From the sequence record SRR2962707_2477: a stretch of DNA of 42,082 nt. One strand, written 5' to 3'. Positions 3,300-41,988 of the stretch are shown here, one piece after another. A program made the position numbers and the translations under genes. The notes under the pieces are model-generated. The model worked only from the letters and a program-made list of their open reading frames with translations, was not told the origin of the DNA and ran no database searches. How positions within the stretch are numbered: the first letter of the stretch is position 1; every line of letters starts with the position of its first letter.

Positions 3300-3515
3300 T
3301 CAGGCCCCACGACATGCGTGCAGCTTGGAATAGTGCCGTTCCAACTCAACCGCCCATGCGTCGACTGCGCTATCACCGGCAGCCTGAAGCGCATCCACCG
3401 CGGCGACAGGAGGCGGCGCCAGTATGGGGCAGCTACCGACGATCCTTGTCGTCTGACAGCCCGCGCAGACGATCGTAAGAGCCAGCAGGATCGATAGCTT
3501 GGCGATCAATGTCAT
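3300..3515 (-). CDS. o-spanin (Rz1-like outer-membrane lipoprotein)
   Basis: Signal peptide with lipobox CAGC, Pro-rich 'CPILAPPP'; overlaps the 3' end of the i-spanin in another frame. Confidence 0.75.
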   Translation of the reverse strand: MTLIAKLSILLALTIVCAGCQTTRIVGSCPILAPPPVAAVDALQAAGDSAVDAWAVELERHYSKLHACRGA

Positions 3516-3672
3516 CGTAATGGTCCTGTAGATGGTCGCGGCGCTTCTGCTGCTCCGCTTCGATATGGGTTATGCCGGCGCTGCGCCCCCGCAGAAACGC
3601 AATGCCGATGGCGACGATGGCAGCTCCGACAATGCCGAGGCCGATCTGCAGCTTGGCCCAAAGCTTAGACAT
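3433..3672 (-). CDS. i-spanin (Rz-like)
   Basis: N-terminal TM followed by a charged helical region; follows the endolysin and overlaps the lipoprotein gene. Confidence 0.7.
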   Translation of the reverse strand: MSKLWAKLQIGLGIVGAAIVAIGIAFLRGRSAGITHIEAEQQKRRDHLQDHYDDIDRQAIDPAGSYDRLRGLSDDKDRR

Positions 3673-4315
3673 CGCGGGGCCGCATGATCATTTTCGTCAC
3701 CAGCCAGGCGGCGAACCCGCACACAGCGACAACGATGGCCACGCCGATTGCGAACTGCACCGGGCCACTGCCCTGCGTCACGCTGCCGGCGGCTGTGATG
3801 ACGCCGCCCGCGCCGACCAGAACGCCAGGCTTGGTGATGATGTCGGTCACCGTTTCCCGCTTGGGTTCGGTCTGGAACTGCGGCGTCGGGGCAGTCTTGC
3901 TGACCGATTCCCTGGGGAAGTCGCTGCCATCGTTCCAATGCCGGGCTGGGCCGGTGTCGATGTGCATGAATCCAGACTTGGGATAGTGCCCAAAGCCAGT
4001 GAACCCGGCCGACCGAGCCGCGCGCTCGAACACCGCCGGGTCTTGGTTGGTCATCATCACGTCGAAGGCCTTACCGAGACGGTGCTGGGAATGCGTGGCG
4101 CCCCCTACCCGCCTATTGTGCGCATCCGACCGATAGGCGCTAGTGATCAACATCGGCTTGCCGAGAGCGGCTCGAAGAGCCTGCAGCTTGTCCATGCTCG
4201 CTTCATCGATCATCAGCTCCCCTTCGCCCTTGCTGGCGATCTCTTGGGGACTGAAGTTCGGCCAGCGCCAGTCGCCCAGCGGGAAATCCCGCCAGGATGA
4301 GTATGTTCGGGCCAT
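3665..4315 (-). CDS. Endolysin, peptidase M15 (Zn D-Ala-D-Ala peptidase fold) with C-terminal hydrophobic segments
   Basis: SAYRS..HN..VGGA..SQH..GKAFD and FMHID motifs; AGGAGG RBS; two hydrophobic helices at the C-terminus. Confidence 0.9.
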   Translation of the reverse strand: MARTYSSWRDFPLGDWRWPNFSPQEIASKGEGELMIDEASMDKLQALRAALGKPMLITSAYRSDAHNRRVGGATHSQHRLGKAFDVMMTNQDPAVFERAARSAGFTGFGHYPKSGFMHIDTGPARHWNDGSDFPRESVSKTAPTPQFQTEPKRETVTDIITKPGVLVGAGGVITAAGSVTQGSGPVQFAIGVAIVVAVCGFAAWLVTKMIMRPRDV

Positions 4316-4394
4316 GGTGGCCTCCTATCTATGTTGAGAATTTACAGCGCCGCCCTACCCGTGCACTGATGCACGAGCTCGGGAGGGCGAGGCG

Positions 4395-4631
4395 ATGAAC
4401 GTGAATGTCTTCGTTATGCGGATCGACGGGGCGATACAGGCGGAAATGCTAGTTCTGCCGCTGGTCCCTTCAGCACCCATTCGGGAAAAGCACCGGAGCG
4501 GCTGGAGTTATTTCGCTACGGTTGACACTGGCGACGGGATATTTGGCGAAATCGATGCTCGTGCAATTGAGGTGGAGATAGCTTCGTCGGGATTTGCATT
4601 AGTGACGCCGCACCTGCTTGATCGACCGTAA
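4395..4631 (+). CDS. Hypothetical moron protein (78 aa)
   Basis: GGAGGG/GAGG RBS; divergent from the endolysin. Confidence 0.6.
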   Translation: MNVNVFVMRIDGAIQAEMLVLPLVPSAPIREKHRSGWSYFATVDTGDGIFGEIDARAIEVEIASSGFALVTPHLLDRP

Positions 4632-4647
4632 ACCCAAATCTCTGCAA

Positions 4648-4686
4648 TTCGGCGAGCGTCACGTCGGCTTAGCGAAGTCCCGCCAG
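4648..4686 (-). pseudogene. Degenerate relic of an endolysin 5' end
   Basis: 26/39 nt ungapped identity to 4257-4295; translates WRDFAKPT*RSPN versus WRDFPLGDWRWPN. Confidence 0.55.
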
Positions 4687-4797
4687 CTTTAGTTGAGCGC
4701 GATTGTGGTGGTGTCTTTTTAGATCTGCTGACGTAATTGCTACGGACTGGAAAACACCGATTTACTCCATTCGTCCGAAGGGCTATTTGCGAACGAT

Positions 4798-6738
4798 ATG
4801 AATGCTGCCCACCGCTATCGCCCGGACATCGACGGCCTACGCGCCCTAGCAGTGCTGTCTGTCGTGCTATTTCACGCTTTTCCGATGGCCTTGCCCGGTG
4901 GTTTTGTCGGTGTGGACGTCTTTTTCGTCATCTCCGGATTTCTCATCACTCGTATATTAATCGACAATAGCGCTCCTGGAGCTAGGAAGTATCTGGACTT
5001 CTATAGCCGCCGCATTCGCCGCATCTTTCCCGCGCTAATACTGGTCCTTGGATCATGCATGGCATTGGGCTGGATCGTGCTGCTCCCCGATGAGTTCGAG
5101 CAGCTCGGAAAGCACGTCGTGGCCGGGGCAGGATTCGTCTCCAACTTAGTGCTGTGGTCAGAAAGCGGCTATTTCGATGTAGCGGCAGAGACCAAACCGC
5201 TTCTGCATCTCTGGTCGCTAGGCGTTGAAGAGCAATTCTACCTTGTATGGCCCTTTGTCGTGTGGGGGATACTCAGGACCAGGATCCCGCTGGCGCCTGC
5301 TATTGCCACAATAGGTGTCGCGTCACTCGTTCTATGCATCTGGGTATCATCCTTTGATACCACCGCCGCATTCTACTCACCTCTAACCCGGTTTTGGGAA
5401 TTGTGCGCAGGAGCTCTGCTGGCCTCGACACGGTCTCTTTCTGTGCCATTTAAGCATCGTAGTGCAGCCGCCGCCCTAGGTATCGTTCTAATTGCAGCAT
5501 CCCTGTTGTTGATCCCGCCTGGTCCGGAGTTGAGAGGTTGGCATCTCTTGATGCCCGTTGGCGGCGCATCTCTACTAATCGGAGCAGGCATGAACTCCGT
5601 GGTGAACATCGGCCTCTCCTCAAGACCTTTGGTTTGGATCGGCCTCATAAGCTATCCGCTCTACCTATGGCACTGGCCGCTCCTCTCATTCGCGCGCATT
5701 GTCGAGAGCGGGGAGCCGTCACCACAAATACAGATGGCAGCGGTCGCCGCGGCATTCTTGTTGGCAATCCTGACCTATTTTCTGATCGAGCGCCCGGTCC
5801 GGTCGCACCGGTTTATCCTCCGGATACACATGACAGGTGCGGCGTTCTTCGTCCTCGCGTTCATTGGTATCGGCGGACTGTTGGTGAACATGTACGCGGG
5901 GCTACCGTTCCGAAGCCCCGTTGCTGAACAGCAATATGTCGCTCAAGAGATCGAACAGCAGTTCACAGACGGCTGCCCATGGACATTCGTTTATATTAAC
6001 CATTGCGCCGAGACGCCTATCGCCGGCAGCAGCGGGCTAGTTGTTTTGGTTGGCGACTCCCACGTCCGCCACGCTTACGAAATCATCAAGCAAGAAATTT
6101 CGCGTCAGGGGTACGATTTCGTCGCCTTTTCGAACGGAGGCTGCCCGTTCTTGCCAGGCGTCTCAACACGAAATGACAGCAATTGCGAACTTAGGAATCG
6201 CGAGATTCAAGAGTTTCTTGATGATCGCAGCTCAGCTATCACTGGCGTACTTTTGGCGGGCTCATTTGCCACCTACACGGCAGACGGGTGGCTCACTAGT
6301 TCAGGCAAGCCAATCGCATTGCAGCAGGCGATGGAGGATACTCTTAGGACCCTCGGTCAGTACAACATCATACTTCTGGAACAGGTTCCACCGATCCTAT
6401 TTGACCCTAAGAAGTGCATCCAGCGGCCCTACCGCATTACGCAAATAGATGAGTTCGAATGTTCCTCCGACAGGGCCGCGGTCATGGAGACCTTGGCAGA
6501 GTCTCGACGCGCGATCGGCGCCGCCACAGAACAGTTCCCCAATGTCACGCTCTATGATTTCGACAATACACTCTGCGATAATGACATCTGCAGCGGCCGA
6601 GACGAAACTGGGGTGTTGTACTACGACGCTACCCACCTGAACCCGCTTGGCGTGGAGCATGTCAAAAAGCGGATGAATGGCGCCGAAATTTTGCCCGGAT
6701 TAGTCACCGAGAAAGTTACCGAGATGAGCGGGAGCTGA
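4798..6738 (+). CDS. OafA-like O-acetyltransferase (acyltransferase-3 membrane domain plus C-terminal SGNH domain)
   Basis: YRPDIDGLRALAV, GGFVGVDVFFVISGFLIT, HLWSLGVEEQFY and SYPLYLWHWP; SGNH motifs GDSH and DATH. Confidence 0.95.
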   Translation: MNAAHRYRPDIDGLRALAVLSVVLFHAFPMALPGGFVGVDVFFVISGFLITRILIDNSAPGARKYLDFYSRRIRRIFPALILVLGSCMALGWIVLLPDEFEQLGKHVVAGAGFVSNLVLWSESGYFDVAAETKPLLHLWSLGVEEQFYLVWPFVVWGILRTRIPLAPAIATIGVASLVLCIWVSSFDTTAAFYSPLTRFWELCAGALLASTRSLSVPFKHRSAAAALGIVLIAASLLLIPPGPELRGWHLLMPVGGASLLIGAGMNSVVNIGLSSRPLVWIGLISYPLYLWHWPLLSFARIVESGEPSPQIQMAAVAAAFLLAILTYFLIERPVRSHRFILRIHMTGAAFFVLAFIGIGGLLVNMYAGLPFRSPVAEQQYVAQEIEQQFTDGCPWTFVYINHCAETPIAGSSGLVVLVGDSHVRHAYEIIKQEISRQGYDFVAFSNGGCPFLPGVSTRNDSNCELRNREIQEFLDDRSSAITGVLLAGSFATYTADGWLTSSGKPIALQQAMEDTLRTLGQYNIILLEQVPPILFDPKKCIQRPYRITQIDEFECSSDRAAVMETLAESRRAIGAATEQFPNVTLYDFDNTLCDNDICSGRDETGVLYYDATHLNPLGVEHVKKRMNGAEILPGLVTEKVTEMSGS

Positions 6739-26512: not shown

Positions 26513-27072
26513 TTATTGTTCACGGCAACCAGCCGAGGCGGGCCCGGCCGCGCAGCAAACTTGCCGCCAGGTGCTGTCGAGGCCTCGGCTGCGCTCTTGC
26601 GCTGCGCCTTCTTGCCGCCGGCCCCCTCGGTTTCGCCCATCGTCTTGAGCGCCAGCGTGATCGTCTGCAGTGTTTTTGCCCGGGTCGGCAGCGACATCGC
26701 CTGGCGCAATGCCTGGACGCGATCGGGATCGGTTTCGTTCATCTGGATGATGACTTCCATCTCGCCCTTGTGGAGCGTTTCGGCAGCCAGCTCATCGAGC
26801 AGACGGTCGGCGACATTGCGCCCGCGGCCGATGACATCCTCGACGCGAGACACATCCGACTTTGGAGCATCCGCGACGGGCAGGTTCGCACTACCAGTTT
26901 GCTGCGAACCTTTTGCCTTTTTCTCTTGCGTCCAGCCCTCTGCTTTCGCGCGCTTACGGATCGCCGTGTCTGAAATCGAGAACCAACGCGCAATCTCCCG
27001 GATCTTGCGGGTTCCAGCGCGATAGTCCTTTTCAATTGCAGCCCAATCAGGGGCCTTTTGGGGATCGCTCAT
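26509..27072 (-). CDS. terS: Terminase small subunit
   Basis: N-terminal HTH 'PDWAAIEKDYRAG...REIA......AIRKRAKAEGW'; C-terminal 'GKKAQRK..A'; overlaps the terL start. Confidence 0.85.
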   Translation of the reverse strand: MSDPQKAPDWAAIEKDYRAGTRKIREIARWFSISDTAIRKRAKAEGWTQEKKAKGSQQTGSANLPVADAPKSDVSRVEDVIGRGRNVADRLLDELAAETLHKGEMEVIIQMNETDPDRVQALRQAMSLPTRAKTLQTITLALKTMGETEGAGGKKAQRKSAAEASTAPGGKFAARPGPPRLVAVNNK

Positions 27073-29369: not shown

Positions 29370-29866
29370 CGCGCAGCTGCCTCCAGGCGCTCACGACGCC
29401 GACGCAAGCCAACGACGACCGTCGAGTGGTCGCGACCGCCAATTGCATCGCCAACCATCGTGGTGCTGTAGCCAAGCTCGACTGTCAGCCGATGGAATGT
29501 CTCATACCGTGCATCGACAGTGGCCCTTGCGCGGCGAAGGCTGATGATATCGTTGACCGTCACCCCAAATTGAGTAGCGACCTCTTCCATGATCGCCTGT
29601 CGCCCAGCATGCTGCCAATCGGCGTGCCTGCCTTTGCGCAGGCGCTCAACGAACGTGAATTGCTTCGGAACAGGCTCTGCATTGACTGCAGGAGCCACAG
29701 CGCGGGCTGTTGGCGGCATTGGCGGATGCAACCGGGCATGCACTGCCCGGCAGTTGGCCAAAACGTCTCTACCCGTCTCAAACTCGCGTGCTGGCATCAT
29801 ATAGCCAACCCGGAATGCCTGGTGTGGACGGCTCGGCTGGGGAATTGTTGCGAGTGCGGTATTCAT
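29366..29866 (-). CDS. Protein with DnaA C-terminal-like HTH
   Basis: 'EVATQFGVTVNDIIS.RR...VDAR...GYSTT.VGDAIGGRDHSTVV'. Confidence 0.85.
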   Translation of the reverse strand: MNTALATIPQPSRPHQAFRVGYMMPAREFETGRDVLANCRAVHARLHPPMPPTARAVAPAVNAEPVPKQFTFVERLRKGRHADWQHAGRQAIMEEVATQFGVTVNDIISLRRARATVDARYETFHRLTVELGYSTTMVGDAIGGRDHSTVVVGLRRRRERLEAAAR

Positions 29867-30531
29867 GCTGCTGCCTCGTCAAACTTGGTGGATTGGTCGC
29901 CCCATGATGCCCAGCCTGGGCGCGACTTGCGCGCGAAGAGCTCGACATAAGGGCCATCGAACATCGTCTCTATCCGGGCGTACTGCTCATCGGGCTTGCG
30001 GCTGTGCTCACGCCTCCGGGCACGCATTGCGCTGCCTGGCATGACTTCCATGAAGTCTCGCACGCATCGCACGCCCTCTGGCGCCGCGCCCATGCCGAAT
30101 AGATCGTCCGGCAGCACCGCCCGCAGGCTTGGATTGCCCCGCGTTGCCAGCAGGCAGGGCTCAAGGTTCTTCCGTGTTCCGTACCCACCGCCAAAGGCGT
30201 ATTTGCCAGTCTCAGGGTTGAACTTGATCCATTCCCAAGCGAGGCCGGCGAATTCAAAGCCCCAAGCTTCAATGATACGGGTCCACTGCGGCATGAACGG
30301 CCATGTCATCCACATAAACAGCGCACAGTCGTCTGCAGCCAGAATGTCGACGGGCAGCGCAGCGATGTCACCGAGTGGCATACAGCCATAGTGCGCCTGG
30401 GCGGACTTGCCCTGCCCCTTCTCGGAATACTGTTCGAATGCCCACGGTGGATCGGCAAGGATCACGCGATAGCCACCAACAGGCCGCATTTCGGCAAAGT
30501 GCCGGGCAATGGGTGCTGATGGAGAGGTCAT
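29863..30531 (-). CDS. MT-A70 family adenine DNA methyltransferase
   Basis: 'VILADPPW', 'ALFMW', 'GYGTRKNLEPCL', 'EHSRKPD' and 'YVELFAR...GW..WG'. Confidence 0.93.
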   Translation of the reverse strand: MTSPSAPIARHFAEMRPVGGYRVILADPPWAFEQYSEKGQGKSAQAHYGCMPLGDIAALPVDILAADDCALFMWMTWPFMPQWTRIIEAWGFEFAGLAWEWIKFNPETGKYAFGGGYGTRKNLEPCLLATRGNPSLRAVLPDDLFGMGAAPEGVRCVRDFMEVMPGSAMRARRREHSRKPDEQYARIETMFDGPYVELFARKSRPGWASWGDQSTKFDEAAA

Positions 30532-31160
30532 GCCACCGCCCTTTCGCCTGCCAATCCACCCCATTGGTCGGCCATCGCCTCGGCAATGCCTGAGAAAAAC
30601 CGGCTGCGTTCTTTCCACCGGTCAGGGCCTGGCGGCATGCGATGCACGCGCTGCTCCCTGCCGGCCACGATTTCTGTCGGTACCAGTGGCGGGAGCCCCT
30701 TGAGCCAGAAGCAAGCGCGCTTGCTCTCGCCATGACCGAATTGCCACGGCTGCACCGATTGGGCCGGGCTGGCATAGTTCTCGATCAGCGCCTTGGCATG
30801 CCGGTGCATCACCGGGTTTTCGATGCAAATGCGCTCGATGGGAGCGTTCCAGAACGCAGAGAACAGTTCCGCACCTTCGCGCAGCTCGGCTTGCATCTGC
30901 TCAGCCGTCTTGCCTGGGGGCGGCTTTGAGAGCCACCGGACACCGCTGTTGCAGAGGCGGGTGCACGGCGGGTGCGCAACCATGAGCAAATCCCATCCAT
31001 CATCGAGCAGGTCGCGGGCATCGCCGACAATGTGCTTGTTCGATCGATCGTCGGACTGCAGCAGGTCGCACGACCATGCATCATGACCCAGCGCCGCAAA
31101 GGCACGGCGAACCGTTCCCGAGAATTCGCAAGCTACCAGAACGCGGAGTGGATCGTTCAT
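30528..31160 (-). CDS. Compact DNA cytosine-methyltransferase-like protein
   Basis: 'RVLVACEFSG' (motif I-like), 'AHPPC' (catalytic PC) and 'IENP' (motif VI); GGAG RBS before ATG 31160. Confidence 0.75.
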   Translation of the reverse strand: MNDPLRVLVACEFSGTVRRAFAALGHDAWSCDLLQSDDRSNKHIVGDARDLLDDGWDLLMVAHPPCTRLCNSGVRWLSKPPPGKTAEQMQAELREGAELFSAFWNAPIERICIENPVMHRHAKALIENYASPAQSVQPWQFGHGESKRACFWLKGLPPLVPTEIVAGREQRVHRMPPGPDRWKERSRFFSGIAEAMADQWGGLAGERAVA

Positions 31161-31390
31161 TTGTGCAGGCTCCCTGCGATGCGCTTGAGGGTCAGGCTGT
31201 TCCGCGCCTGCTGGGCCAGATCCGCCGGCCGACCGCCCGCCGCAGCAGCAATCAGAGCATCCCGCTTCGTCTTGCGGCGATGATTGACCTGCACGCCCTT
31301 GGCTCTCAGCTCCTTGCGAAGCTGATCTGCTACTGCGTCTTGGGTGCGGATGATCTTGCGGGATGTGGGCATGGTGAGATTTTGGGTCAT
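31157..31390 (-). CDS. Small basic hypothetical protein
   Basis: Translationally coupled on both sides. Confidence 0.55.
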   Translation of the reverse strand: MTQNLTMPTSRKIIRTQDAVADQLRKELRAKGVQVNHRRKTKRDALIAAAAGGRPADLAQQARNSLTLKRIAGSLHK

Positions 31391-31590
31391 GTCTGCGACC
31401 TTCCGGCTGCGCGGCGCTTTCGCCAGCGACGATGGGCTCTGCCGCCTGATGAGCGGATGCCAGGGTTTTGGGATGGCTTTCGGATGCTGGGCATAGTGCC
31501 GGCCGCCAGAATTCCGAGCGGCCGCGGCTGATCCACCATCCCTGCGTAGCGGTCGATGAGCAGATCAATGAACTCATCGAGGAATTCCAT
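31387..31590 (-). CDS. Small hypothetical protein
   Basis: GGAGGG RBS; 'HRRWRKRRAAGR' tail. Confidence 0.55.
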   Translation of the reverse strand: MEFLDEFIDLLIDRYAGMVDQPRPLGILAAGTMPSIRKPSQNPGIRSSGGRAHRRWRKRRAAGRSQT

Positions 31591-32976: not shown

Positions 32977-33095
32977 CAGAACACCCCCGGCGAAAGGATC
33001 GCGGCCAGTGTCAGACCGATCAGAACGCAGAACAGCGCTACCGTTGCGCATATCCGGTTCACCAGGCTGCCAAGTGGAATGGGTTCGCGGGCCAT
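32976..33095 (-). CDS. Tiny single-TM peptide (39 aa, not in the ORF track)
   Basis: MAREPIPLGSLVNRICATVALFCVLIGLTLAAILSPGVF*; GGAGG RBS; TGATG overlap with the HNH gene. Confidence 0.6.
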   Translation of the reverse strand: MAREPIPLGSLVNRICATVALFCVLIGLTLAAILSPGVF

Positions 33096-33658
33096 CACAC
33101 AGCCTCCATCGGAACGTGAGTCCACGTTTTGCCCCGGACTATGCCGCAGACGGTCGCGTGATGAAGCCCGTACTGCTTGGCCAGATCTCCTACTCGCCGC
33201 GAAACCTCACGGTTCTTGATGGCGCGGTACTGCCGGCGGATATCGATCACCTGCTGTTCCGTCAGCTTGGCCTTCGGATTTCGCTCGCCCACCCCGGGCG
33301 TAGTGCCGTGCACTACAGTGTCTGCATGATTTTGGGCACGAGTGGCCCAGCGCAACTCTGCGAAGTGCGCACAAACTCGCGAACCGTTATTGTGCGCAAC
33401 TTCGTGCTTGCCCGATGGGGCCGGGCCAATGAACGCTTCAGCGACAAGGCGGTATACGGTGATGGTTTCCTTGTTGCCGCTGGAATTTGTCAGGGCATAG
33501 CGCAGATACCCATCAGCATCGATGAAACCCTTGAGACGCTCGCCCACTTTGCGGCCATTGGCCGGCACAGCACGACGCACATCACCCCACTCGGAGACAT
33601 CGAAATTTGGGAAGCGTGGGCATGAGAGCCATTGCATCAAATGAGCCTGGGTCATCAA
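33095..33658 (-). CDS. Free-standing HNH endonuclease (NUMOD4/HNH_3-like with C-terminal HTH)
   Basis: 'VSEWGDVR', 'VYRLVAEAFIGP....VAHNNG......LRWATRAQN..D...HGT' and 'AKLTEQQV..IR'. Confidence 0.85.
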   Translation of the reverse strand: MMTQAHLMQWLSCPRFPNFDVSEWGDVRRAVPANGRKVGERLKGFIDADGYLRYALTNSSGNKETITVYRLVAEAFIGPAPSGKHEVAHNNGSRVCAHFAELRWATRAQNHADTVVHGTTPGVGERNPKAKLTEQQVIDIRRQYRAIKNREVSRRVGDLAKQYGLHHATVCGIVRGKTWTHVPMEAV

Positions 33659-33888
33659 ATATCCCCCAACGCGGAAAGATACGTTTCGATCAGCGCCTCT
33701 TGCTCCAGGCGTTCGCTGCGCGGCTGCTTGCGAATGTTCACGACGCGGCGCAAAATCTTGCGGTCAAAACCGGCAGAGTGAGCCTCTCCGAAAATCTCTT
33801 TGATATCGGCGGCGCATTCGGCCTTGTCCGCTTCGCGGCGTTCAATCCGCTCAACCAAAGCGCGCAGCTGTCCGTTCGTCTCGGTCAT
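33655..33888 (-). CDS. DUF2312 / GapR-like nucleoid-associated protein
   Basis: 'QLRALVERIER.E.DK....DIKEIF.EA.SAGFD.KILR.VV.IRK.....EQEALIETYLSALG'. Confidence 0.9.
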   Translation of the reverse strand: MTETNGQLRALVERIERREADKAECAADIKEIFGEAHSAGFDRKILRRVVNIRKQPRSERLEQEALIETYLSALGDI

Positions 33889-34272
33889 CTATGCCTCCTC
33901 AGAAATTTTGTGAACACTGCTTACCTCGCCGACCGGCAGCACCACGATGGCCCGCGCGCAGTTCGGCGCAGTCGCCAGAACGCCGCGATGCACCAACCGC
34001 TGCACCATGTCGTGGAGCGAGCCCTTGGAGCTTTTGCCGATGGCCTTGGAGATTTCGCCGTAGCTGGGCGAATGCCCGTGCTCTGCGACGAAGTCCGAAA
34101 TGAAGTCGACCAGCTTGCGCTGCATGACGGTCAGCCCGACATGGCGCCCTGCTCTGTCAGCCATCAGGCATCGAGCGAGGAATTCGCGATCGTCTTTGAT
34201 GTCACGATACTGATCGGCCAGAATGTCTGCCTGTTCGCGTATCTCGGCTGGGATATCGACGGGGAAAGTCAT
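33889..34272 (-). CDS. LexA-type winged-helix DNA-binding protein lacking a peptidase domain
   Basis: 'LT..QRKLVDFI.....HGHSPSYGEI...GKSSKGSLH..V.RL..RG.......ARAI'. Confidence 0.8.
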   Translation of the reverse strand: MTFPVDIPAEIREQADILADQYRDIKDDREFLARCLMADRAGRHVGLTVMQRKLVDFISDFVAEHGHSPSYGEISKAIGKSSKGSLHDMVQRLVHRGVLATAPNCARAIVVLPVGEVSSVHKISEEA

Positions 34273-34514
34273 GCTGCCACCGTTGATCTGGGGCGAGCGA
34301 CACCTTTGGGCCACGCTTTCCCAGCCGGCCAGTTGTCCGAGAACCAGAGCATCGCCCTCTCGAACACCCGAACCGTTGGACTGAGCTTTCCGGTGGCGAA
34401 GTCATCGAGGCGATTGCCTTGATTGAGAGCCAAGGTCGATACGCGCTTTCGGCCACGGTTTGTCAGTTGGCCGTAGGCATCTGCGACTGTGATGAGTTGG
34501 GTTCTAAGGTCCAT
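34269..34514 (-). CDS. Cro-like repressor
   Basis: Small, divergent from cI; 'VADAY......RVSTLA..G..L......T....ERAM.WFSDNWP....WP' type. Confidence 0.8.
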   Translation of the reverse strand: MDLRTQLITVADAYGQLTNRGRKRVSTLALNQGNRLDDFATGKLSPTVRVFERAMLWFSDNWPAGKAWPKGVARPRSTVAA

Positions 34515-34527
34515 GTCGCTATTGTAT

Positions 34528-34610
34528 GCGGCACTTGTGCCGCATGGTCAAGCGAAAAACGCGGCACTCTTGCCGCTGGCGCGCCTTCTCAGCAGCGGCA
34601 ACAATGCCGC
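34528..34610. promoter_or_regulatory. OR operator array: three 16-bp palindromes GCGGCA-N4-TGCCGC
   Basis: Sites at 34528-34543, 34561-34576 and 34595-34610. The first lies between TTGACC and TACAAT hexamers (minus strand) facing cro. Confidence 0.88.
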
Positions 34611-34612
34611 AC

Positions 34613-35386
34613 ATGAGTACGGCATATGAGCGCATACGCGCACGCATCGATGAACTGCACCCCGGTACAAGTGATCGCGCCGCGTCGTTGGCCGCGTCAG
34701 ATGGCCGGAACGCCGACCTACTGCGAACTATTAAGCAGGGGCGATCCGCCTTTCCTCGCGGAGACAACCTGCAGGGCCTGGCGGACTACCTGCGTTGGCC
34801 CGTAAGCACTTTAACCGCAGAGCCGCACGACGATGACGCCCGCGATCTGCAGCGCGTCCCTCTAGAGGAGGACTGGCGCCCCACGTCAGAAGCGGATGGC
34901 GAGGGCTACGACCGCGACAGCTACAGCCCTACCATTCCTGGTGCGATCCCTGAACTTGATGCCAAGGCAGGAGCCGGCGAAGGTTCAGTGGGTGAAGTAA
35001 TGGTGCTGCCGATGGGGAACGGCACAATATCGGCCCACAAGATCCTGGACGAGTGGCGCATTCCGCCGTCGTATTTGCGCGAGGCCGTCTCCAACCCTGA
35101 ACGCGCCATAGTTCTCGGCATCCAAGGCGACAGCATGATGCCGAACTACGCGCCAGGTGATCGAGTGATAATTGATCTGACAGAGCACGAGCTGCGGGCA
35201 GATGGTGTGTACCTGATCAGCGACGGCTATTCAGAGCCTCAGATCAAGCGGCTGCAGCGCGTCATGTTCGCCGTGCCACCGCGATGCAGGATCATCAGCG
35301 ACAACCCGAGTTATGAGGCTCAGGAGGTCGATGTTGATGGGGTGAAGATACTCGGAAAGGTGGCGGCATACGTGGGGCGGCGGTGA
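34613..35386 (+). CDS. CI-like repressor (HTH plus S24 autopeptidase)
   Basis: Ala-Gly cleavage region 'AKAGAG', catalytic 'GDSM.P' and 'IKRL'; start at 34604 or 34613. Confidence 0.92.
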   Translation: MSTAYERIRARIDELHPGTSDRAASLAASDGRNADLLRTIKQGRSAFPRGDNLQGLADYLRWPVSTLTAEPHDDDARDLQRVPLEEDWRPTSEADGEGYDRDSYSPTIPGAIPELDAKAGAGEGSVGEVMVLPMGNGTISAHKILDEWRIPPSYLREAVSNPERAIVLGIQGDSMMPNYAPGDRVIIDLTEHELRADGVYLISDGYSEPQIKRLQRVMFAVPPRCRIISDNPSYEAQEVDVDGVKILGKVAAYVGRR

Positions 35387-35580
35387 CCATCCCCGGGGCG
35401 CCCAAAGAACCCAGAGAGCTCGCGGCCCGCGCACTATGTCGATTTGACGGTCATCCCGAGGATATCAAGTTCGAAGGAAGGCCTATGTGGGAGAGCTACA
35501 TTCCCTAGGCGGATGCAGTGGTGAAGAATATAGGGTGGTTGCCCGAGGGGAATGGCTGATGCGATTGATAATTGCTAGTT

Positions 35581-35600
35581 TGATATTATATGTGGTATCA
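35581..35600. promoter_or_regulatory. Inverted repeat over the hicA promoter region (probable HicB operator)
   Basis: TGATA-N10-TATCA in an AT-rich patch 2 nt before the GTG start. Confidence 0.55.
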
Positions 35601-35602
35601 CG

Positions 35603-35893
35603 GTGAGCAGAAATGACAAGTTAATCGCCGCCATCAGGAACAACCCAAAGGACGTTCGCTTCGATGACGCTCTTCGTGCTGCGGAATTGATCGGGTTCAC
35701 AGCGTCGGGCGGATCCGGCTCGCACCGTACTCTGGCGCGCCCCGGTGAGCCATCCCAGTTAAATTTCCAGCAAGTCGCTGGCGGCAAAGCGAAGCCGTAC
35801 CAGGTGCGTCAGCTTGTCGAGATGATCGACCGTTACTGGGGCGACGGCAGCGAAAACGGCGAAAATGATGTCGAGAGTGATAGCTATGACTAG
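35603..35893 (+). CDS. hicA: HicA-family mRNA interferase toxin
   Basis: 'NPKDVRFDD......GF....GSGSH....PG....NFQ....KAKPYQVRQL'. Confidence 0.88.
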   Translation: MSRNDKLIAAIRNNPKDVRFDDALRAAELIGFTASGGSGSHRTLARPGEPSQLNFQQVAGGKAKPYQVRQLVEMIDRYWGDGSENGENDVESDSYD

Positions 35894-36425
35894 CAAGTAT
35901 GCAGTGGAGTTTTTCTGGAGCGACGAGGACGAGGGCTATATCGCCACCGTACCTGACTTGCCGGGTTGCTCGGCATTTGGCGAAACGCGTGCTGACGCCG
36001 CCGCCGAGATTGAGCACTCGATCCTGGCTTGGATCGCGGCTGCTGAAGCTGCTGGGAATTCGGTGCCCGAGCCCTCCGTTCGTGCCGACTTTAACAGCTA
36101 TAGCGGCAAGATCCTGCTTCGCATGCCCAAGGAACTACATCAAGACCTGCAGGTTTGCGCTAAACAGCAGGGGGTTAGTCTGAATTCTTACGTATGCTTC
36201 AAGCTCTCCCAGAGGCACTACCACGCCGAAGCAATCAAGGATTTGGCAAGCTCGCTCCGTTGGCAATCTGTCGGCTTTACCAGCGGCGCGACCACTCAAC
36301 ACATCATCCAGCTTGCTTCGGTTACAAAGGTGAACGAGCCTTCCCTGATCCAAGGGAGCACAGCCACCCAGCCAGAAACCATCGTAACGCCATTGGCCAT
36401 GTTTGGGACGACGCACAATGCCTGA
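35886..36425 (+). CDS. hicB: HicB-family antitoxin with RHH domain and ~65-aa C-terminal extension
   Basis: 'WSDEDEGYIATVPDLPGCSAFGET...A' and 'YSGKILLRMPKELHQDL...A..QGVSLN'. Confidence 0.9.
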   Translation: MTSKYAVEFFWSDEDEGYIATVPDLPGCSAFGETRADAAAEIEHSILAWIAAAEAAGNSVPEPSVRADFNSYSGKILLRMPKELHQDLQVCAKQQGVSLNSYVCFKLSQRHYHAEAIKDLASSLRWQSVGFTSGATTQHIIQLASVTKVNEPSLIQGSTATQPETIVTPLAMFGTTHNA

Positions 36426-36663
36426 AGTCGCACAGTATAACTTCTCCTCGCGCGAAGTGGGGATCGCACTGCTGAAGCAAGCTAACATTACGTCTGGCAA
36501 ATGGTCGTTCGGCGTTAGTTTCGGCATTAATATCGGCAATTTCGGCGCCGATGAGCACCAAGTGTTCCCATCAGTGATGGCACAGGCGCAGGGTTTCGTA
36601 CTGCAGCGGGCTCCCGACGAGGCGCCCGATGTGGGCTTGGTGATCGACGCCGGCAAACTCTAG
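36418..36663 (+). CDS. Third gene of the hicAB operon, unknown function (81 aa)
   Basis: ATG overlaps the hicB stop (ATGCCTGA) and the gene is followed by a terminator. Confidence 0.75.
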   Translation: MPEVAQYNFSSREVGIALLKQANITSGKWSFGVSFGINIGNFGADEHQVFPSVMAQAQGFVLQRAPDEAPDVGLVIDAGKL

Positions 36664-36684
36664 CTTCTTACACAGACAGCCTGC

Positions 36685-36714
36685 AAAGCCCCGCCCTCGG
36701 GCGGGGCTTTTTTT
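36685..36714 (+). terminator. Intrinsic terminator, probably bidirectional
   Basis: AAAGCCCCGCC-CTCG-GGCGGGGCTTTTTTT between convergent genes. Confidence 0.92.
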
Positions 36715-36716
36715 GG

Positions 36717-37022
36717 TCAGTTGACCGTCGACCCTAGCGCCTCATAGGCCTGCAGCGTCTTGACCAAGTCGGGTATGACCTTGGGATGGAGCGGCTTGCA
36801 CATGTAGACCCGGTTCTGGTCGCTATCACCCCCGCCTCCCGCGATGCCTACCACTGGAATGATGTTGAATTCATCTTCGTCGGTGGCCGGGCCCGGGAAC
36901 GCATCAAATCGATAGTGGGGATACTCGCGCCGCATAGCGTTGAGCAGCAGCGCCTGCTCCGCCTCCCCTGCCCTCAATAGCCGTTCTGGAAAGGCTACAA
37001 CGAAGTGCGTCACGTCGCGCAT
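36717..37022 (-). CDS. Probably SOS-regulated hypothetical protein (101 aa)
   Basis: MRDVTHFVVAFP...; GGAG RBS embedded in a LexA box. Confidence 0.7.
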   Translation of the reverse strand: MRDVTHFVVAFPERLLRAGEAEQALLLNAMRREYPHYRFDAFPGPATDEDEFNIIPVVGIAGGGGDSDQNRVYMCKPLHPKVIPDLVKTLQAYEALGSTVN

Positions 37023-37025
37023 CTT

Positions 37026-37040
37026 GTTCTCCATATGTTC
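37026..37040 (-). promoter_or_regulatory. Alphaproteobacterial LexA box
   Basis: GAACatatggaGAAC (GAAC-N7-GAAC) 3 nt before the ATG at 37022. Confidence 0.75.
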
Positions 37041-37114
37041 CGCTTTGGATAACACTCCAGATCGCTAAGCGAGTCGAGTCTGATTTCATGGGCGCGATTA
37101 AGTTCTGCATGCGC

Positions 37115-37168
37115 ACGGCAATAGTGCCGCATTCTATGCTTGACGCGGCACAAGTGCCGCACTAGTGT
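37115..37168 (+). promoter_or_regulatory. OL operators and PL promoter
   Basis: ACGGCAATAGTGCCGC (37115-37130) and GCGGCACAAGTGCCGC (37145-37160); TTGACG-N17-TAGTGT (37140-37168) straddles the second operator. Confidence 0.85.
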
Positions 37169-37208
37169 TTTCCCATTACCAGCCATATCGGCAATGGGAG
37201 ATGAGACG

Positions 37209-37976
37209 ATGAACACAGAGACCGCCGCAAAGATCAGCAGCCTGATCAGCCGAGGCGCACTTTTCGTCATCAACCACAGTGCAGGCAAGGACAGTCAGGC
37301 TATGACCGCCATGCTTCGCCGCATGGTCCCCATTGCTCAATTGCTCGTCGTGCATGCCGACCTTGGCCGTGTTGAGTGGTCAGGTGTCCAGGATCATATC
37401 AGGGCAACCATTGGCTCCATGGAGCTGATCGTGTGCCGCAATGAGAACCGTGACTTGCTCCAGATGGTGGCAGATCGCGGCATGTTCCCCAGCCCGCAGC
37501 AGCGCCAATGCACCAGCGACCTCAAGCGCGGACCGATCGAGCGGACAATCCGCCGACATCTCAAGGCCCATCCAGAGTTCAACGGCTTGGTCGTAAATTG
37601 CATGGGGCTTCGCGCCGAGGAAAGCGCCAACCGAGCGAAGGCTAAGGTTCTCAAACTCAATGAGGGGAACAGCAAGGCCGGACGCGAATGGTATGACTGG
37701 CTGCCTATTCATGACTGGTCGCTTGATCAAGTTTGGCAGGAGACCGAAGCTGCAGGCCAGGAGCCGCACCCAGCGTATGCACTCGGTATGTCGCGCCTTT
37801 CCTGCGTCTTCTGCATCATGGCCAGCGACCGTGATCTGAGGATCGCTGCGGAGCATAACCTAGAGCTTTTTGCCCAGTACGTTGCCTTGGAGAAATCCAC
37901 GGGCCGCACAATGATGATGCCCCGCCAAGGCGTTGCGCTAGGCCTCGAAGAAATCACGGGCCTCAAGGCCGCCTAA
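37209..37976 (+). CDS. Phosphoadenosine-phosphosulfate (PAPS) reductase family protein
   Basis: PP-loop 'SAGKDS', 'RQCTSDLKRGPI', 'GLRAEESANRA', 'LPIHDWS' and 'HPAY..GMSRLSCVFC'. Confidence 0.9.
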   Translation: MNTETAAKISSLISRGALFVINHSAGKDSQAMTAMLRRMVPIAQLLVVHADLGRVEWSGVQDHIRATIGSMELIVCRNENRDLLQMVADRGMFPSPQQRQCTSDLKRGPIERTIRRHLKAHPEFNGLVVNCMGLRAEESANRAKAKVLKLNEGNSKAGREWYDWLPIHDWSLDQVWQETEAAGQEPHPAYALGMSRLSCVFCIMASDRDLRIAAEHNLELFAQYVALEKSTGRTMMMPRQGVALGLEEITGLKAA

Positions 37977-38032
37977 CCCCTTCCTCCCCCGGGCGGCGGG
38001 TTTGGCCAATAACCGGCCCGCCGATTTATTCA

Positions 38033-38230
38033 ATGTCCACCCTCCTAGAAGCGCTGATCGAGCAATCTGCTGAGCTGGTCGAGGCCGTCACCTTTGACGA
38101 ATCCGGCGTGAACGGCAGAGGCGGCAATGGCGGCCTGCTCGATCGCCAGACCATGCACAAGGCGGCCCGGCTCGGTCGGACGCTGGAGGCCATCAAGCGC
38201 CGCGGCGTGACTGCCGAGGTGTCGGCATGA
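38033..38230 (+). CDS. Hypothetical protein
   Basis: Coupled (ATGA) to the next gene; 'G.GGNGGLL' motif. Confidence 0.65.
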   Translation: MSTLLEALIEQSAELVEAVTFDESGVNGRGGNGGLLDRQTMHKAARLGRTLEAIKRRGVTAEVSA

Positions 38231-38442
38231 GGGGCCTGCACACAATCCGTCACAGCTATATCGACCCGCTCGAAAAGAAGCCGGTAGCGCGCGGCCGCAG
38301 GGTGATCACGCCCGAGCAGGCTGCAGCCGATACGGCATTCTGGCGAGAGCATCGAGAGAAAGCTCACGCCGAGACGGCACGAATTGAAGCCGAATGGGAC
38401 GCCCGGCACGGGGTCACCAGAACGAAGGGGCGCAAGCCATGA
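38227..38442 (+). CDS. Hypothetical protein
   Basis: GAGG RBS; ATGA overlaps at both ends. Confidence 0.6.
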   Translation: MRGLHTIRHSYIDPLEKKPVARGRRVITPEQAAADTAFWREHREKAHAETARIEAEWDARHGVTRTKGRKP

Positions 38443-38549
38443 TCGCCATCCGCAATACCGTTTTGCTCTCAGCCTGGACGCTGGGGATCTTCGCCGCCGG
38501 GTTCTGGTTGCGCTTCGATGTGCCTATCTGGAGTGCGTTCAATGGCTGA
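38439..38549 (+). CDS. Tiny single-TM peptide (36 aa, not in the ORF track)
   Basis: MIAIRNTVLLSAWTLGIFAAGFWLRFDVPIWSAFNG*; fills the gap with overlaps on both sides. Confidence 0.55.
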   Translation: MIAIRNTVLLSAWTLGIFAAGFWLRFDVPIWSAFNG

Positions 38550-40810: not shown

Positions 40811-41107
40811 ATGAGCCATTTGGCACCTGCCCGACCACTCACCCCAGACCAAGTCGCTGAAATTTGGGGCTGCTCTCCGAACCACGTGCGCAACCTAATC
40901 CACAGGGGTGAGCTGCGGGCTTTCCGACTAGGGCAGCGCCTGCTCAGAATACCGGCTGATGCAATCGGGGAATACGAAGCATGTCAACAGAACTCAGAAT
41001 TGGGCGCCTCAACGGAGGGTATGTCGTCACCTGGTGGGAGGGAGACAGGCGACGGCGTTATCGTCTTAACGCACAGTCGCGAACGGCAGCAGAGACAGAA
41101 GCTCTAG
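40811..41107 (+). CDS. xis: Excisionase (HTH DNA-binding)
   Basis: 'LTPDQVAEIWGCS..HVRNLI.RGELRAFRLG..LRIP'; adjacent to the integrase. Confidence 0.85.
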   Translation: MSHLAPARPLTPDQVAEIWGCSPNHVRNLIHRGELRAFRLGQRLLRIPADAIGEYEACQQNSELGASTEGMSSPGGRETGDGVIVLTHSRERQQRQKL

Positions 41108-41988
41108 CGGTCTTCCAAAGAGAAACGCTTAAGGCGACCGGCATCACCGTCGGCGCGCTCTGGGAAATGTATCGCAAGGAGAAGGAAGGCCGGCGCATCG
41201 CCGTCACGATGGGCTTCGAGCGCAAGGCGATGTTCCCGTTCTTCGCTGATCTGCGCCCGGAAGAACTGACCATCGAGATGTGCCGGAAATATACGGCAGC
41301 TCGCCGCAAGGCAGGCAAGCAAGATGGAACAATCTGGACCGAGCTGGGTCACCTACGCACCGTTATGACATGGGCCGCTGATCGTCGCCTGATACCATAC
41401 GCGCCAGCCATCGAGCGCCCCCAGAAGCCTGCGCCTAAAGAACGTTGGCTGACCCGTGAGGAATGCGCCCGCCTGATCGCAGCAGCGGACGCCCACCACG
41501 TCAAGCTCGCAATCATGCTGATGCTGGCGACGGCAGGACGCGTCACCGCCATTCTCGAACTGACATGGGATAGGGTGGACTTTGACCGCGGCATCATCAG
41601 CCTTCGAAGCACCGAGGGGACCACACGCAAGGGTCGGGCAACCGTGCCGATGAACGACATGGTGCGGGCAGCGTTAAGCCACGCCGAGAAGGCGGCAACG
41701 ACGGATTATGTGGTGGAGTGGGCAGGCGGCCCCATCAAGCGTCTGCGCACCGGCTTCAACGCAGCGGTAAAGGCCGCTGGGCTGAGAGACGTGAGCCCTC
41801 ACGTTCTTCGCCATTCTGCAGCGGTGCACTTGGCAGCAGCAGGCACGCCAATGAGCAAGATCAGTCAGTACCTGGGACACAGCTCAACTGCTGTCACAGA
41901 GCGCGTATATGCCCGTTTCGCGCCCGACCACCTGCGGGATGAGGCCGATATTCTGGACTTCTCAATGCCGCTCCGACTTGTCCGCTAG
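40981..41988 (+). CDS. int: Tyrosine recombinase / phage integrase
   Basis: Catalytic R ('TAGR'), K ('RKGR'), 'HVLRH', 'LGH' and 'VYA'; ends next to the att site. Confidence 0.96.
   Translation: MSTELRIGRLNGGYVVTWWEGDRRRRYRLNAQSRTAAETEALAVFQRETLKATGITVGALWEMYRKEKEGRRIAVTMGFERKAMFPFFADLRPEELTIEMCRKYTAARRKAGKQDGTIWTELGHLRTVMTWAADRRLIPYAPAIERPQKPAPKERWLTREECARLIAAADAHHVKLAIMLMLATAGRVTAILELTWDRVDFDRGIISLRSTEGTTRKGRATVPMNDMVRAALSHAEKAATTDYVVEWAGGPIKRLRTGFNAAVKAAGLRDVSPHVLRHSAAVHLAAAGTPMSKISQYLGHSSTAVTERVYARFAPDHLRDEADILDFSMPLRLVR

Follow-up and report, generated by a model that had tools for sequence, protein, structure and literature searches.

Downstream of the repressor gene of a prophage, a HicA-HicB toxin-antitoxin (TA) gene pair is followed by a third small gene, here called X, and the question that this locus raises is whether X belongs to the TA pair as a working partner and how it might act. 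The DNA concerned is a 42,082-nucleotide stretch from sequence record SRR2962707_2477 (the window), a lambdoid, siphovirus-type prophage with about 59% G+C, in which the hicA-hicB-X module takes up approximately 1.1 kb. A first-pass annotation had described the module as a possible relative of the toxin-antitoxin-chaperone (TAC) systems, with a third partner other than SecB. In the analysis presented here, hicA, hicB and X emerge as what is very probably a conserved, functional three-gene unit. A TAC-like mechanism, in which X would act through a C-terminal tail of HicB, is a tentative reading that we would put just short of even.

The DNA context could be read for three X loci, i.e. the window, a Mesorhizobium locus and an Acinetobacter plasmid, which together represent less than 5% of the X family. 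At all three, X directly follows the gene of a tail-extended ribbon-helix-helix (RHH) HicB, itself preceded by hicA, and the tripartite unit is considered well supported because of this. The loci belong to three kinds of element (a prophage, a chromosomal islet by tRNA-Phe, and a plasmid) in alpha- and gammaproteobacteria. Co-occurrence of X homologues with tail-extended antitoxins, which had been put forward as a check on the original proposal, was thus found wherever it could be looked for, and a fourth linked case is likely, as the contig of the tail-bearing HicB P0133 matches that of the X homologue P0002 in source and in length (3147 nt).

The Mesorhizobium locus was found by scanning genome contigs with a five-sequence X alignment, which gave 24 pattern matches that came down to one locus in Mesorhizobium sp. 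SP-1A (L001). Its proteins are 71% (HicA), 56% (HicB) and 54% (X) identical to those of the window, the gene order is the same, the start of X overlaps the hicB stop in the same manner (ATGCCTGA), and a terminator-like GC-rich palindrome follows. When the two loci were compared, the proportions of non-synonymous and synonymous differences (pN/pS) were 0.17/0.89 for hicA and 0.32/0.88 for X; within hicB, the core had 0.23/0.79 and the tail 0.39/0.73. With synonymous sites saturated and non-synonymous differences low, all three genes, and the tail taken separately, are under purifying selection. The Mesorhizobium unit occupies an islet of about 2 kb (3413-5650) directly after tRNA-Phe, flanked by housekeeping genes on one side and a gene for a Y-family polymerase on the other, with no repressor gene (cI) nearby, and the islet is probably the remnant of an integrated element. 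It also holds a small putative lipoprotein open reading frame (ORF) and a downstream 115-codon ORF whose product, by eye, resembles part of a baseplate or spike protein of a phage.

The Acinetobacter locus was reached through P0154, a distant X relative whose database clusters are all named 'hypothetical protein'. In a tblastn search against plasmids, P0154 retrieved a 77-aa 'hypothetical protein' on the Acinetobacter seifertii plasmid NZ_CP061563.1, which matched the X family profile with an hhalign probability of 98.5 (E 1.9e-15). On the same strand, an annotated HicA gene precedes it from the other side of the record origin, and between this gene and X there is a hicB of 162 codons (Pfam HicB, E 4.5e-19) encoding about 55 residues after the RHH domain. 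The gene table of the record omits this hicB because the ORF spans the start of the circular record (L006 1-138 plus L005 1-418), which leaves hicA looking like an orphan among the annotated genes. HicA is 32% identical to its counterpart in the window, HicB and X are each 27% identical to theirs, and the Acinetobacter X starts 16 nt after hicB, with no overlap. Tblastn with the window X, P0005 and P0173 found nothing, and with the Acinetobacter X it found nothing in phages and only its own record in plasmids.

X is a genuine protein, is conserved, and has a fold that is predicted with confidence. A word-indexed search with X returned only two proteins (85% identical), and an exhaustive HMMER scan of 1.84 billion cluster representatives gave 130 relatives at E<=1e-3, three of them at E<=1e-10. 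As many as 124 of the 130 are at most 130 aa long and match nearly end to end, with nearly all lengths between 80 and 100 aa. A profile search in a 5.8-billion-protein set gave 97 clusters, nearly all of them single metagenomic sequences, and every named one is a 'hypothetical protein'. For the family alignment (n=72), the window X and two close relatives were combined with 69 of the 130 that were picked by eye for a near-full-length match, and in it G27, W29 and P51 are invariant. None of the 72 sequences matched a PHROG or NCBIfam model at E<=0.01, Pfam gave single noise matches only (E>=0.03), and the X profile found nothing among PDB sequences (best E 0.89). The window X is acidic, with an isoelectric point (pI) of 4.75. 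Many family members have a Lys/Arg-rich C-terminal tail, which the X proteins of the window, Mesorhizobium and Acinetobacter do not.

An AlphaFold2 model of X, calculated from the 72-sequence alignment, had a predicted local distance difference test (pLDDT) score of 94.8 and a predicted template-modelling (pTM) score of 0.73. It consists of a helix (residues 11-21), a long hairpin (28-45/48-65) and a short strand (75-77). Column statistics for the hairpin showed one face to be hydrophobic and the other polar or glycine-containing, and X is for that reason predicted to be a soluble two-layer protein with free sheet edges. The earlier description of X as beta-rich and unlike SecB holds. Pfam SecB matched none of the 72 members, and Foldseek with the X model gave no match at E<=0.001 in PDB or BFVD and no SecB among the best 50 PDB rows. 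A SecB-like X was thus ruled out by Pfam, by the PDB sequence search and by Foldseek, and a relationship of X with HicB was likewise ruled out (hhalign probability 0.1). Matches to the alpha-hemolysin stem raised the idea of a membrane or pore-forming hairpin, which was discarded as well (template-modelling score about 0.2, E>=0.7, one hairpin face polar throughout the family). The idea that X also exists in fused forms was rejected too. Four of the six long relatives (P0069, P0096, P0105 and P0119) are repeat proteins with partial matches and DUF11/LTD-like repeats, and the other two (P0015 and P0074) have an X-like domain with extensions that match nothing.

HicA is marginal by its own profile match, and its identification draws support from its similarity to the plasmid HicA, a conserved G-S-H motif and the position of its gene, besides the 71% identity to the Mesorhizobium protein. 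Identity to the Acinetobacter HicA amounts to 32% (E 1.8e-8), the latter passes the Pfam cut-off itself (6.8e-8, 32.9 bits), and the G-S-H motif is aligned in the HicA proteins of the window, Mesorhizobium and Acinetobacter. A PHROG 'toxin' family was matched at 9.6e-4, and PDB sequences gave no match. The assignment of HicB (35886-36425, 179 aa) is secure from its profile matches: residues 12-65 matched PF15919 (HicB_lk_antitox; 7.1e-9, 36.3 bits, cut-off 27), residues 68-103 matched PF05534 (HicB; 1.8e-11, 44.2 bits, cut-off 21), and phrog_497 ('HicB-like') was matched at 1.6e-12. In one operon, hicA is immediately 5' of hicB, and the order is the same in Mesorhizobium L001 and on the Acinetobacter plasmid. 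No PADLOC model matched HicA, HicB or X.

The residues that follow the RHH domain of HicB are extra to an ordinary HicB. The first-pass annotation had seen this atypical tail correctly, although it comprises 71 residues (109-179) and not about 65. When HicB was compared by tblastn with 72,556 plasmids, 15 records were found, none of them with an alignment that goes beyond query residue 110. A two-gene hicAB of Cupriavidus encodes a HicB of 109 aa and has no annotated X, and the 155-aa HicB of Thermus pVV8 has an unrelated shorter extension, with helix-turn-helix genes downstream and no annotated X. Among the three close alphaproteobacterial HicBs the tail has a motif L-R/E-W-Q in which W126 is invariant, and a MAFFT alignment of three tails revealed a common hydrophobic strand-like segment and a C-terminal G-x-x-x-N-A ending. 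A word-indexed search with the tail only returned a single protein, P0133, a HicB of 178 aa.

In the window, the order is cI-like repressor, 41-codon ORF, palindrome, hicA, hicB, X and terminator (Table 1), and the elements listed in the first-pass annotation were all found within a few bases of where it had put them. The hicB ATG overlaps the hicA stop by 8 nt (ATGACTAG), and the X ATG overlaps the hicB stop by the same length (ATGCCTGA), as had been noted; the X peptide quoted there was also correct. At position 3, 44 of the 72 aligned X sequences have E and 9 have D. The resulting N-terminus, M-[A/P]-[E/D], is what would be expected from a ATGNNTGA overlap with an upstream stop, a weaker hint of linkage given that it could equally be a feature of the protein. 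The terminator after X is a strong one and folds at -28 kcal/mol (z -3.7).

Upstream of hicA, the palindrome TGATA-N10-TATCA is unique in the window and was matched in none of 100 shuffles. The 20-nt block that contains it is 19/20 identical upstream of the GTG codon in the window and in the Mesorhizobium locus, and the remaining DNA upstream of hicA gave no alignment between the two. The palindrome reported earlier is thus present and conserved, although its arms measure only 5 bp, and because of this we infer its function and call it a candidate operator. An 8-codon mini-ORF (ATG TGG TAT ..., 35590-35616) begins inside the palindrome and overlaps the hicA GTG out of frame, and the same mini-ORF is present in Mesorhizobium L001 (4218-4244). 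Together with the lack of a visible Shine-Dalgarno sequence for hicA, it may reflect coupling, a leaderless arrangement or a by-product of operator conservation.

With regard to expression, no terminator was found between cI and hicA, nor any on the plus strand from 35386 to 36685, and a scan for sigma-70 consensus promoters from 34300 to 37300 gave no sites. Read-through from the repressor promoter (PRM) is for these two reasons a plausible source of module expression.

We propose that the module would be a conserved and mobile three-gene TA unit, carried in a lambdoid immunity region as a moron that is expressed in the lysogen. HicA would be an RNase-type toxin, the N-terminal domain of HicB would neutralise it, and the RHH domain would repress the operon at TGATA-N10-TATCA. 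The 71-residue tail and the translationally coupled X would constitute a third functional pair, in which X would bind the tail, probably at the exposed edge of its long beta-hairpin, which strands of the tail would join, and would thereby control the stability or the activity of HicB. Strand augmentation is suggested because the tails share a hydrophobic strand-like segment and the G-x-x-x-N-A ending, and X is predicted to have free beta edges. If X were titrated, or its synthesis blocked, e.g. by a superinfecting phage, HicA would be freed, and the unit would behave in a TAC-like manner without being a SecB-type TAC. The published TACs resemble the module in gene order and in a C-terminal antitoxin extension of variable sequence; binding of X to the tail, dependence of HicB on X and any anti-phage role are inferences. 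A bolder version, which we regard as unlikely though far from negligible, is that X founds a new non-SecB class of antitoxin partner, holds the HicB tail by beta-strand augmentation and senses infection for a prophage-borne abortive-infection switch, with either a phage competitor or halted coupled translation freeing HicA.

Several observations weigh against the TAC-like mechanism or the assignments beneath it. Gene context has been read for only three or four members of the X family, and this family, with at least 130 clusters at 50% identity, far exceeds the detectable tail homologues (one, by word-indexed search). The tail of the Acinetobacter HicB has no tryptophan, so that the tail tryptophan is invariant only among the three alphaproteobacterial HicBs, and BLAST similarity between the HicBs of the window and Acinetobacter ends about 15 residues beyond the RHH domain. 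An AlphaFold2 model of HicB, built from three sequences, had a pLDDT of 35.5, too low for use. The fold of X is unlike that of any known chaperone or solved structure (best E 0.6 in PDB and 0.06 in BFVD), and in P0074 the 146 residues in frame upstream of the X-like domain have no match to HicB or any other Pfam family. HicA matched the Pfam HicA_toxin profile over 51 of its 58 positions, with an E-value of 0.0024 and 18.4 bits against a 27-bit cut-off. Finally, according to part of the account in PMC12894663, a hicAB of a Pseudomonas putida prophage is a working TA system that gave no defence against the phages tried.

Other explanations of X have to be weighed against the same data. The simplest, that X is a chance ORF, has only the small size of the gene in its favour and is refuted by the 130 relatives with full-length matches, a pN far below pS and the confidently predicted fold, which leave it a vanishingly small probability. 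X could instead be an unrelated passenger, i.e. a small moron that happens to share the hicAB transcript. No function, family or interaction has been demonstrated for X, and the 16-nt gap that replaces the overlap on the Acinetobacter plasmid would suit such a passenger. On the other hand, adjacency and order have been kept at 27-32% protein identity, from alpha- to gammaproteobacteria and in three kinds of element, and the 8-nt start/stop overlap has been kept in two loci, all of which makes a passenger improbable. To much the same degree, with at most a shade more in its favour, it is improbable that X is a nucleic-acid-binding accessory protein or co-regulator that tunes autoregulation or RNA targeting and is not a chaperone. 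TA systems with a separate regulator are known, and the Lys/Arg-rich C-terminal tails of many family members would fit this role. In contrast, the X proteins of the three readable loci have no basic tail, that of the window has an acidic pI, HicB already provides an RHH domain, and X matched no DNA-binding family or fold.

The alternative closest to the TAC-like mechanism keeps X as a functional third component that does not act via the HicB tail. X might be a trigger or sensor that binds directly to HicA or to a phage protein, or might be a second neutraliser, and the tail would serve as a degron or in oligomerisation. The linkage evidence fits any functional partnership, and X is recognisably conserved among distant members in which the tail is poorly conserved. 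Set against this, the tail and X occur together in all three readable loci, and the ordinary hicAB systems of Cupriavidus and Thermus described above go without an annotated X. We consider an action away from the tail distinctly unlikely, and prefer the TAC-like mechanism at the tentative level given at the outset.

Table 1. Features of the immunity region and the hicA-hicB-X module (positions in the window).
Feature	Position	Strand	Remarks
OR	34528..34610		Three GCGGCA-N4-TGCCGC copies at 34528, 34561 and 34595, between leftward early operon and cI
cI-like repressor	34526..35386	+	C-terminal S24 peptidase domain; PF00717 8e-14; phrog_4 5e-28
41-codon ORF	35383..35508	+	Overlaps cI stop (GTGA); neighbour of module, membership not claimed
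Palindrome TGATA-N10-TATCA	35581..35600		Ends 2 nt before hicA GTG; candidate HicB (RHH) operator
hicA	35603..35893	+	96 aa; GTG start, no Shine-Dalgarno visible; N-terminal extension, acidic C-terminus
hicB core	35886..36209	+	N-terminal HicB-like domain (residues 1-65) and ribbon-helix-helix (residues 68-108)
hicB tail	36210..36425	+	71 aa (residues 109-179) and stop codon; ordinary RHH HicBs lack it
X	36418..36663	+	81 aa, uncharacterised family; one helix, long beta-hairpin and short strand (predicted)
Intrinsic terminator	36685..36716	+	Stem-loop 36685-36710 and U-run; 11-bp GC-rich stem, 4-nt loop; closes cI-hicA-hicB-X unit
112-codon ORF	36717..37055	-	Between module terminator and OL; convergent with X on same terminator; neighbour, membership not claimed
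OL	37115..37160		Two GCGGCA-N4-TGCCGC copies at 37115 and 37145, before rightward operon

The position of the module in the prophage was defined with the help of the repressor operators. On the minus strand, the terminase, portal, protease, major head, tape measure and tail fibre genes are located at about 8.5-27 kb, and the antiterminator, replication, methylase and HNH genes at 27.7-34.5 kb. A rightward operon runs from a gene similar to phosphoadenosine phosphosulfate (PAPS) reductase (37140) through excisionase and integrase (40811-41988), and the immunity region is the interval that separates these two divergent early operons. The operators are clean 16-bp palindromes, spaced by 33-34 nt in OR and by 30 nt in OL. 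Allowing up to one mismatch, GCGGCA-N4-TGCCGC had six matches in the whole window against 0.55 expected, a count reached in none of 100 shuffles; the sixth match, at 26552, is probably due to chance. The reading frame of cI is open from 34526 onwards. One possible start in it (ATG 34604) is overlapped by the third OR site, a further ATG (34613) comes directly after that site, and these operator positions suggest that one of the two is the true start of cI.

Given the operators at OR and OL, the module, which is downstream of cI on the same strand, sits between cI and OL, bearing out the location proposed for it earlier. In lambda, the slot between cI and OL is occupied by rexAB, which is co-directional with cI, and the description of hicA-hicB-X as an operon in the equivalent slot is upheld, with three genes that are co-directional with cI and precede OL. 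The module does not have the interval from cI to OL to itself, since the 41-codon and 112-codon ORFs share it. No related phage was found at the DNA level for 33000-38500, where only five records matched, each over 6-7% of the query.

The 41-codon ORF had tblastn matches in 18 alphaproteobacterial plasmid records, mostly from sphingomonads, with 47-78% identity among the best 15 of the 18, and in one plasmid record that was inspected the match is antisense to an annotated gene. After its TAG stop the frame stays open for 16 sense codons up to a TGA (to 35559), and the region 35383-35559 may represent an interrupted or read-through small gene. The 112-codon ORF had no match in Pfam, NCBIfam, PHROGs, PADLOC or plasmids. 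The PAPS-reductase-fold gene (37140-37976) is the first gene of the rightward (PL-like) operon, and its product matched PADLOC models for BrxP (2.8e-18), SspD (1.9e-12) and DndC, and PHROG 424 'PAPS reductase' (2.8e-37); it may have a DNA-modification or anti-defence function. Elsewhere in the prophage, the early operon contains two adjacent and overlapping DNA methyltransferase genes (29863-31577; phrog_359 1.5e-63 and phrog_757 8.8e-61), and the tail-fibre end contains the gene of a 646-aa O-antigen acetylase (4798-6738; phrog_6705, 4.5e-156), likely a serotype-converting moron.

TAC systems have so far been defined by a SecB-like chaperone, and the present locus is not a TAC in that sense, because likeness of X to SecB was tested and none was found. 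In the parts of PMC5105189 and bioRxiv 10.1101/2024.02.24.581848 that deal with HigBA1-SecB(TA) of Mycobacterium tuberculosis (Mtb), HicAB-SecB(TA) of Methylomonas and HigBAC/CmdTAC of Escherichia coli prophages, the systems are, as here, tricistronic, with toxin, antitoxin and a small third gene. The antitoxins have a sequence-variable C-terminal 'chaperone addiction' extension, also in the Methylomonas HicAB-SecB (PMC5105189), which is absent from two-gene relatives, and a prophage location is a further point of likeness; prophage-borne TACs are described to sense phage proteins through the chaperone (bioRxiv 10.1101/2024.02.24.581848). Unlike the third protein of these systems, X is not SecB-like by sequence or predicted fold, and is half the size of SecB. 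The Mtb chaperone addiction (ChAD) tail has an aromatic/basic recognition motif; the tails studied here have L-R/E-W-Q in three close HicBs and no tryptophan in Acinetobacter. In pasABC, paaR2-paaA2-parE2 and omega-epsilon-zeta, a third small protein modulates the TA pair, but these systems differ from the present one in gene order, protein families and the role of the third component (regulator or enhancer), and X had no homology to the third proteins of other three-component TA systems in any library searched.

By sequence membership, the locus falls among the RHH-type hicAB loci. Like the canonical form ('Class 4', Gerdes 2024, PMC10865869), as characterised in the main text of that survey, it has hicA before hicB, an N-terminal HicB domain with an RHH domain, and a palindrome at the start of the operon; it differs in the 71-aa tail after the RHH domain, in the conserved third gene and in the longer HicA (96 aa). 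Among the 14 classes of HicA gene context in the survey, which take in bicistronic operons, fusions and hicA genes next to Viperin genes, there is no tricistronic one, and the terms 'SecB', 'extension' and 'three-gene' are absent from its main text, a scope that excludes Table S1 (PMC10865869). Full-text literature searches turned up no hicAB with a non-SecB third gene, and the supplementary tables of PMC10865869 and PMC5105189 could hold such cases. With lambda rexAB and with the RexAB-type system/hicAB2 of the P. putida P1 prophage, as far as the relevant part of PMC12894663 describes them, the module shares its slot inside OR-OL, where it follows the repressor gene, reads in the same direction and is not preceded by a terminator. 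It differs from rexAB in that its proteins are of the HicA and HicB types and not Rex, and from the P. putida hicAB2 in that the latter is a two-gene TA system (PMC12894663). In summary of these comparisons, the HicAB core and the prophage slot are ordinary, and what is new is the conserved addition of tail plus X and the unmatched fold of X.

If HicA, HicB and X are a conserved unit whose third protein is not SecB and has an unmatched fold, three-part antitoxin control would be a more general design than the SecB-type systems suggest. Such a unit would also provide a function for a family that is 'hypothetical' throughout and comprises at least 130 clusters, mostly environmental, and phages of rhizobia-like hosts would gain a candidate defence module, expressed in the lysogen, at the position classically held by rexAB. 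Should X be a new class of antitoxin partner, unrelated folds would have given rise to chaperone addiction in TA systems on at least two occasions in evolution.

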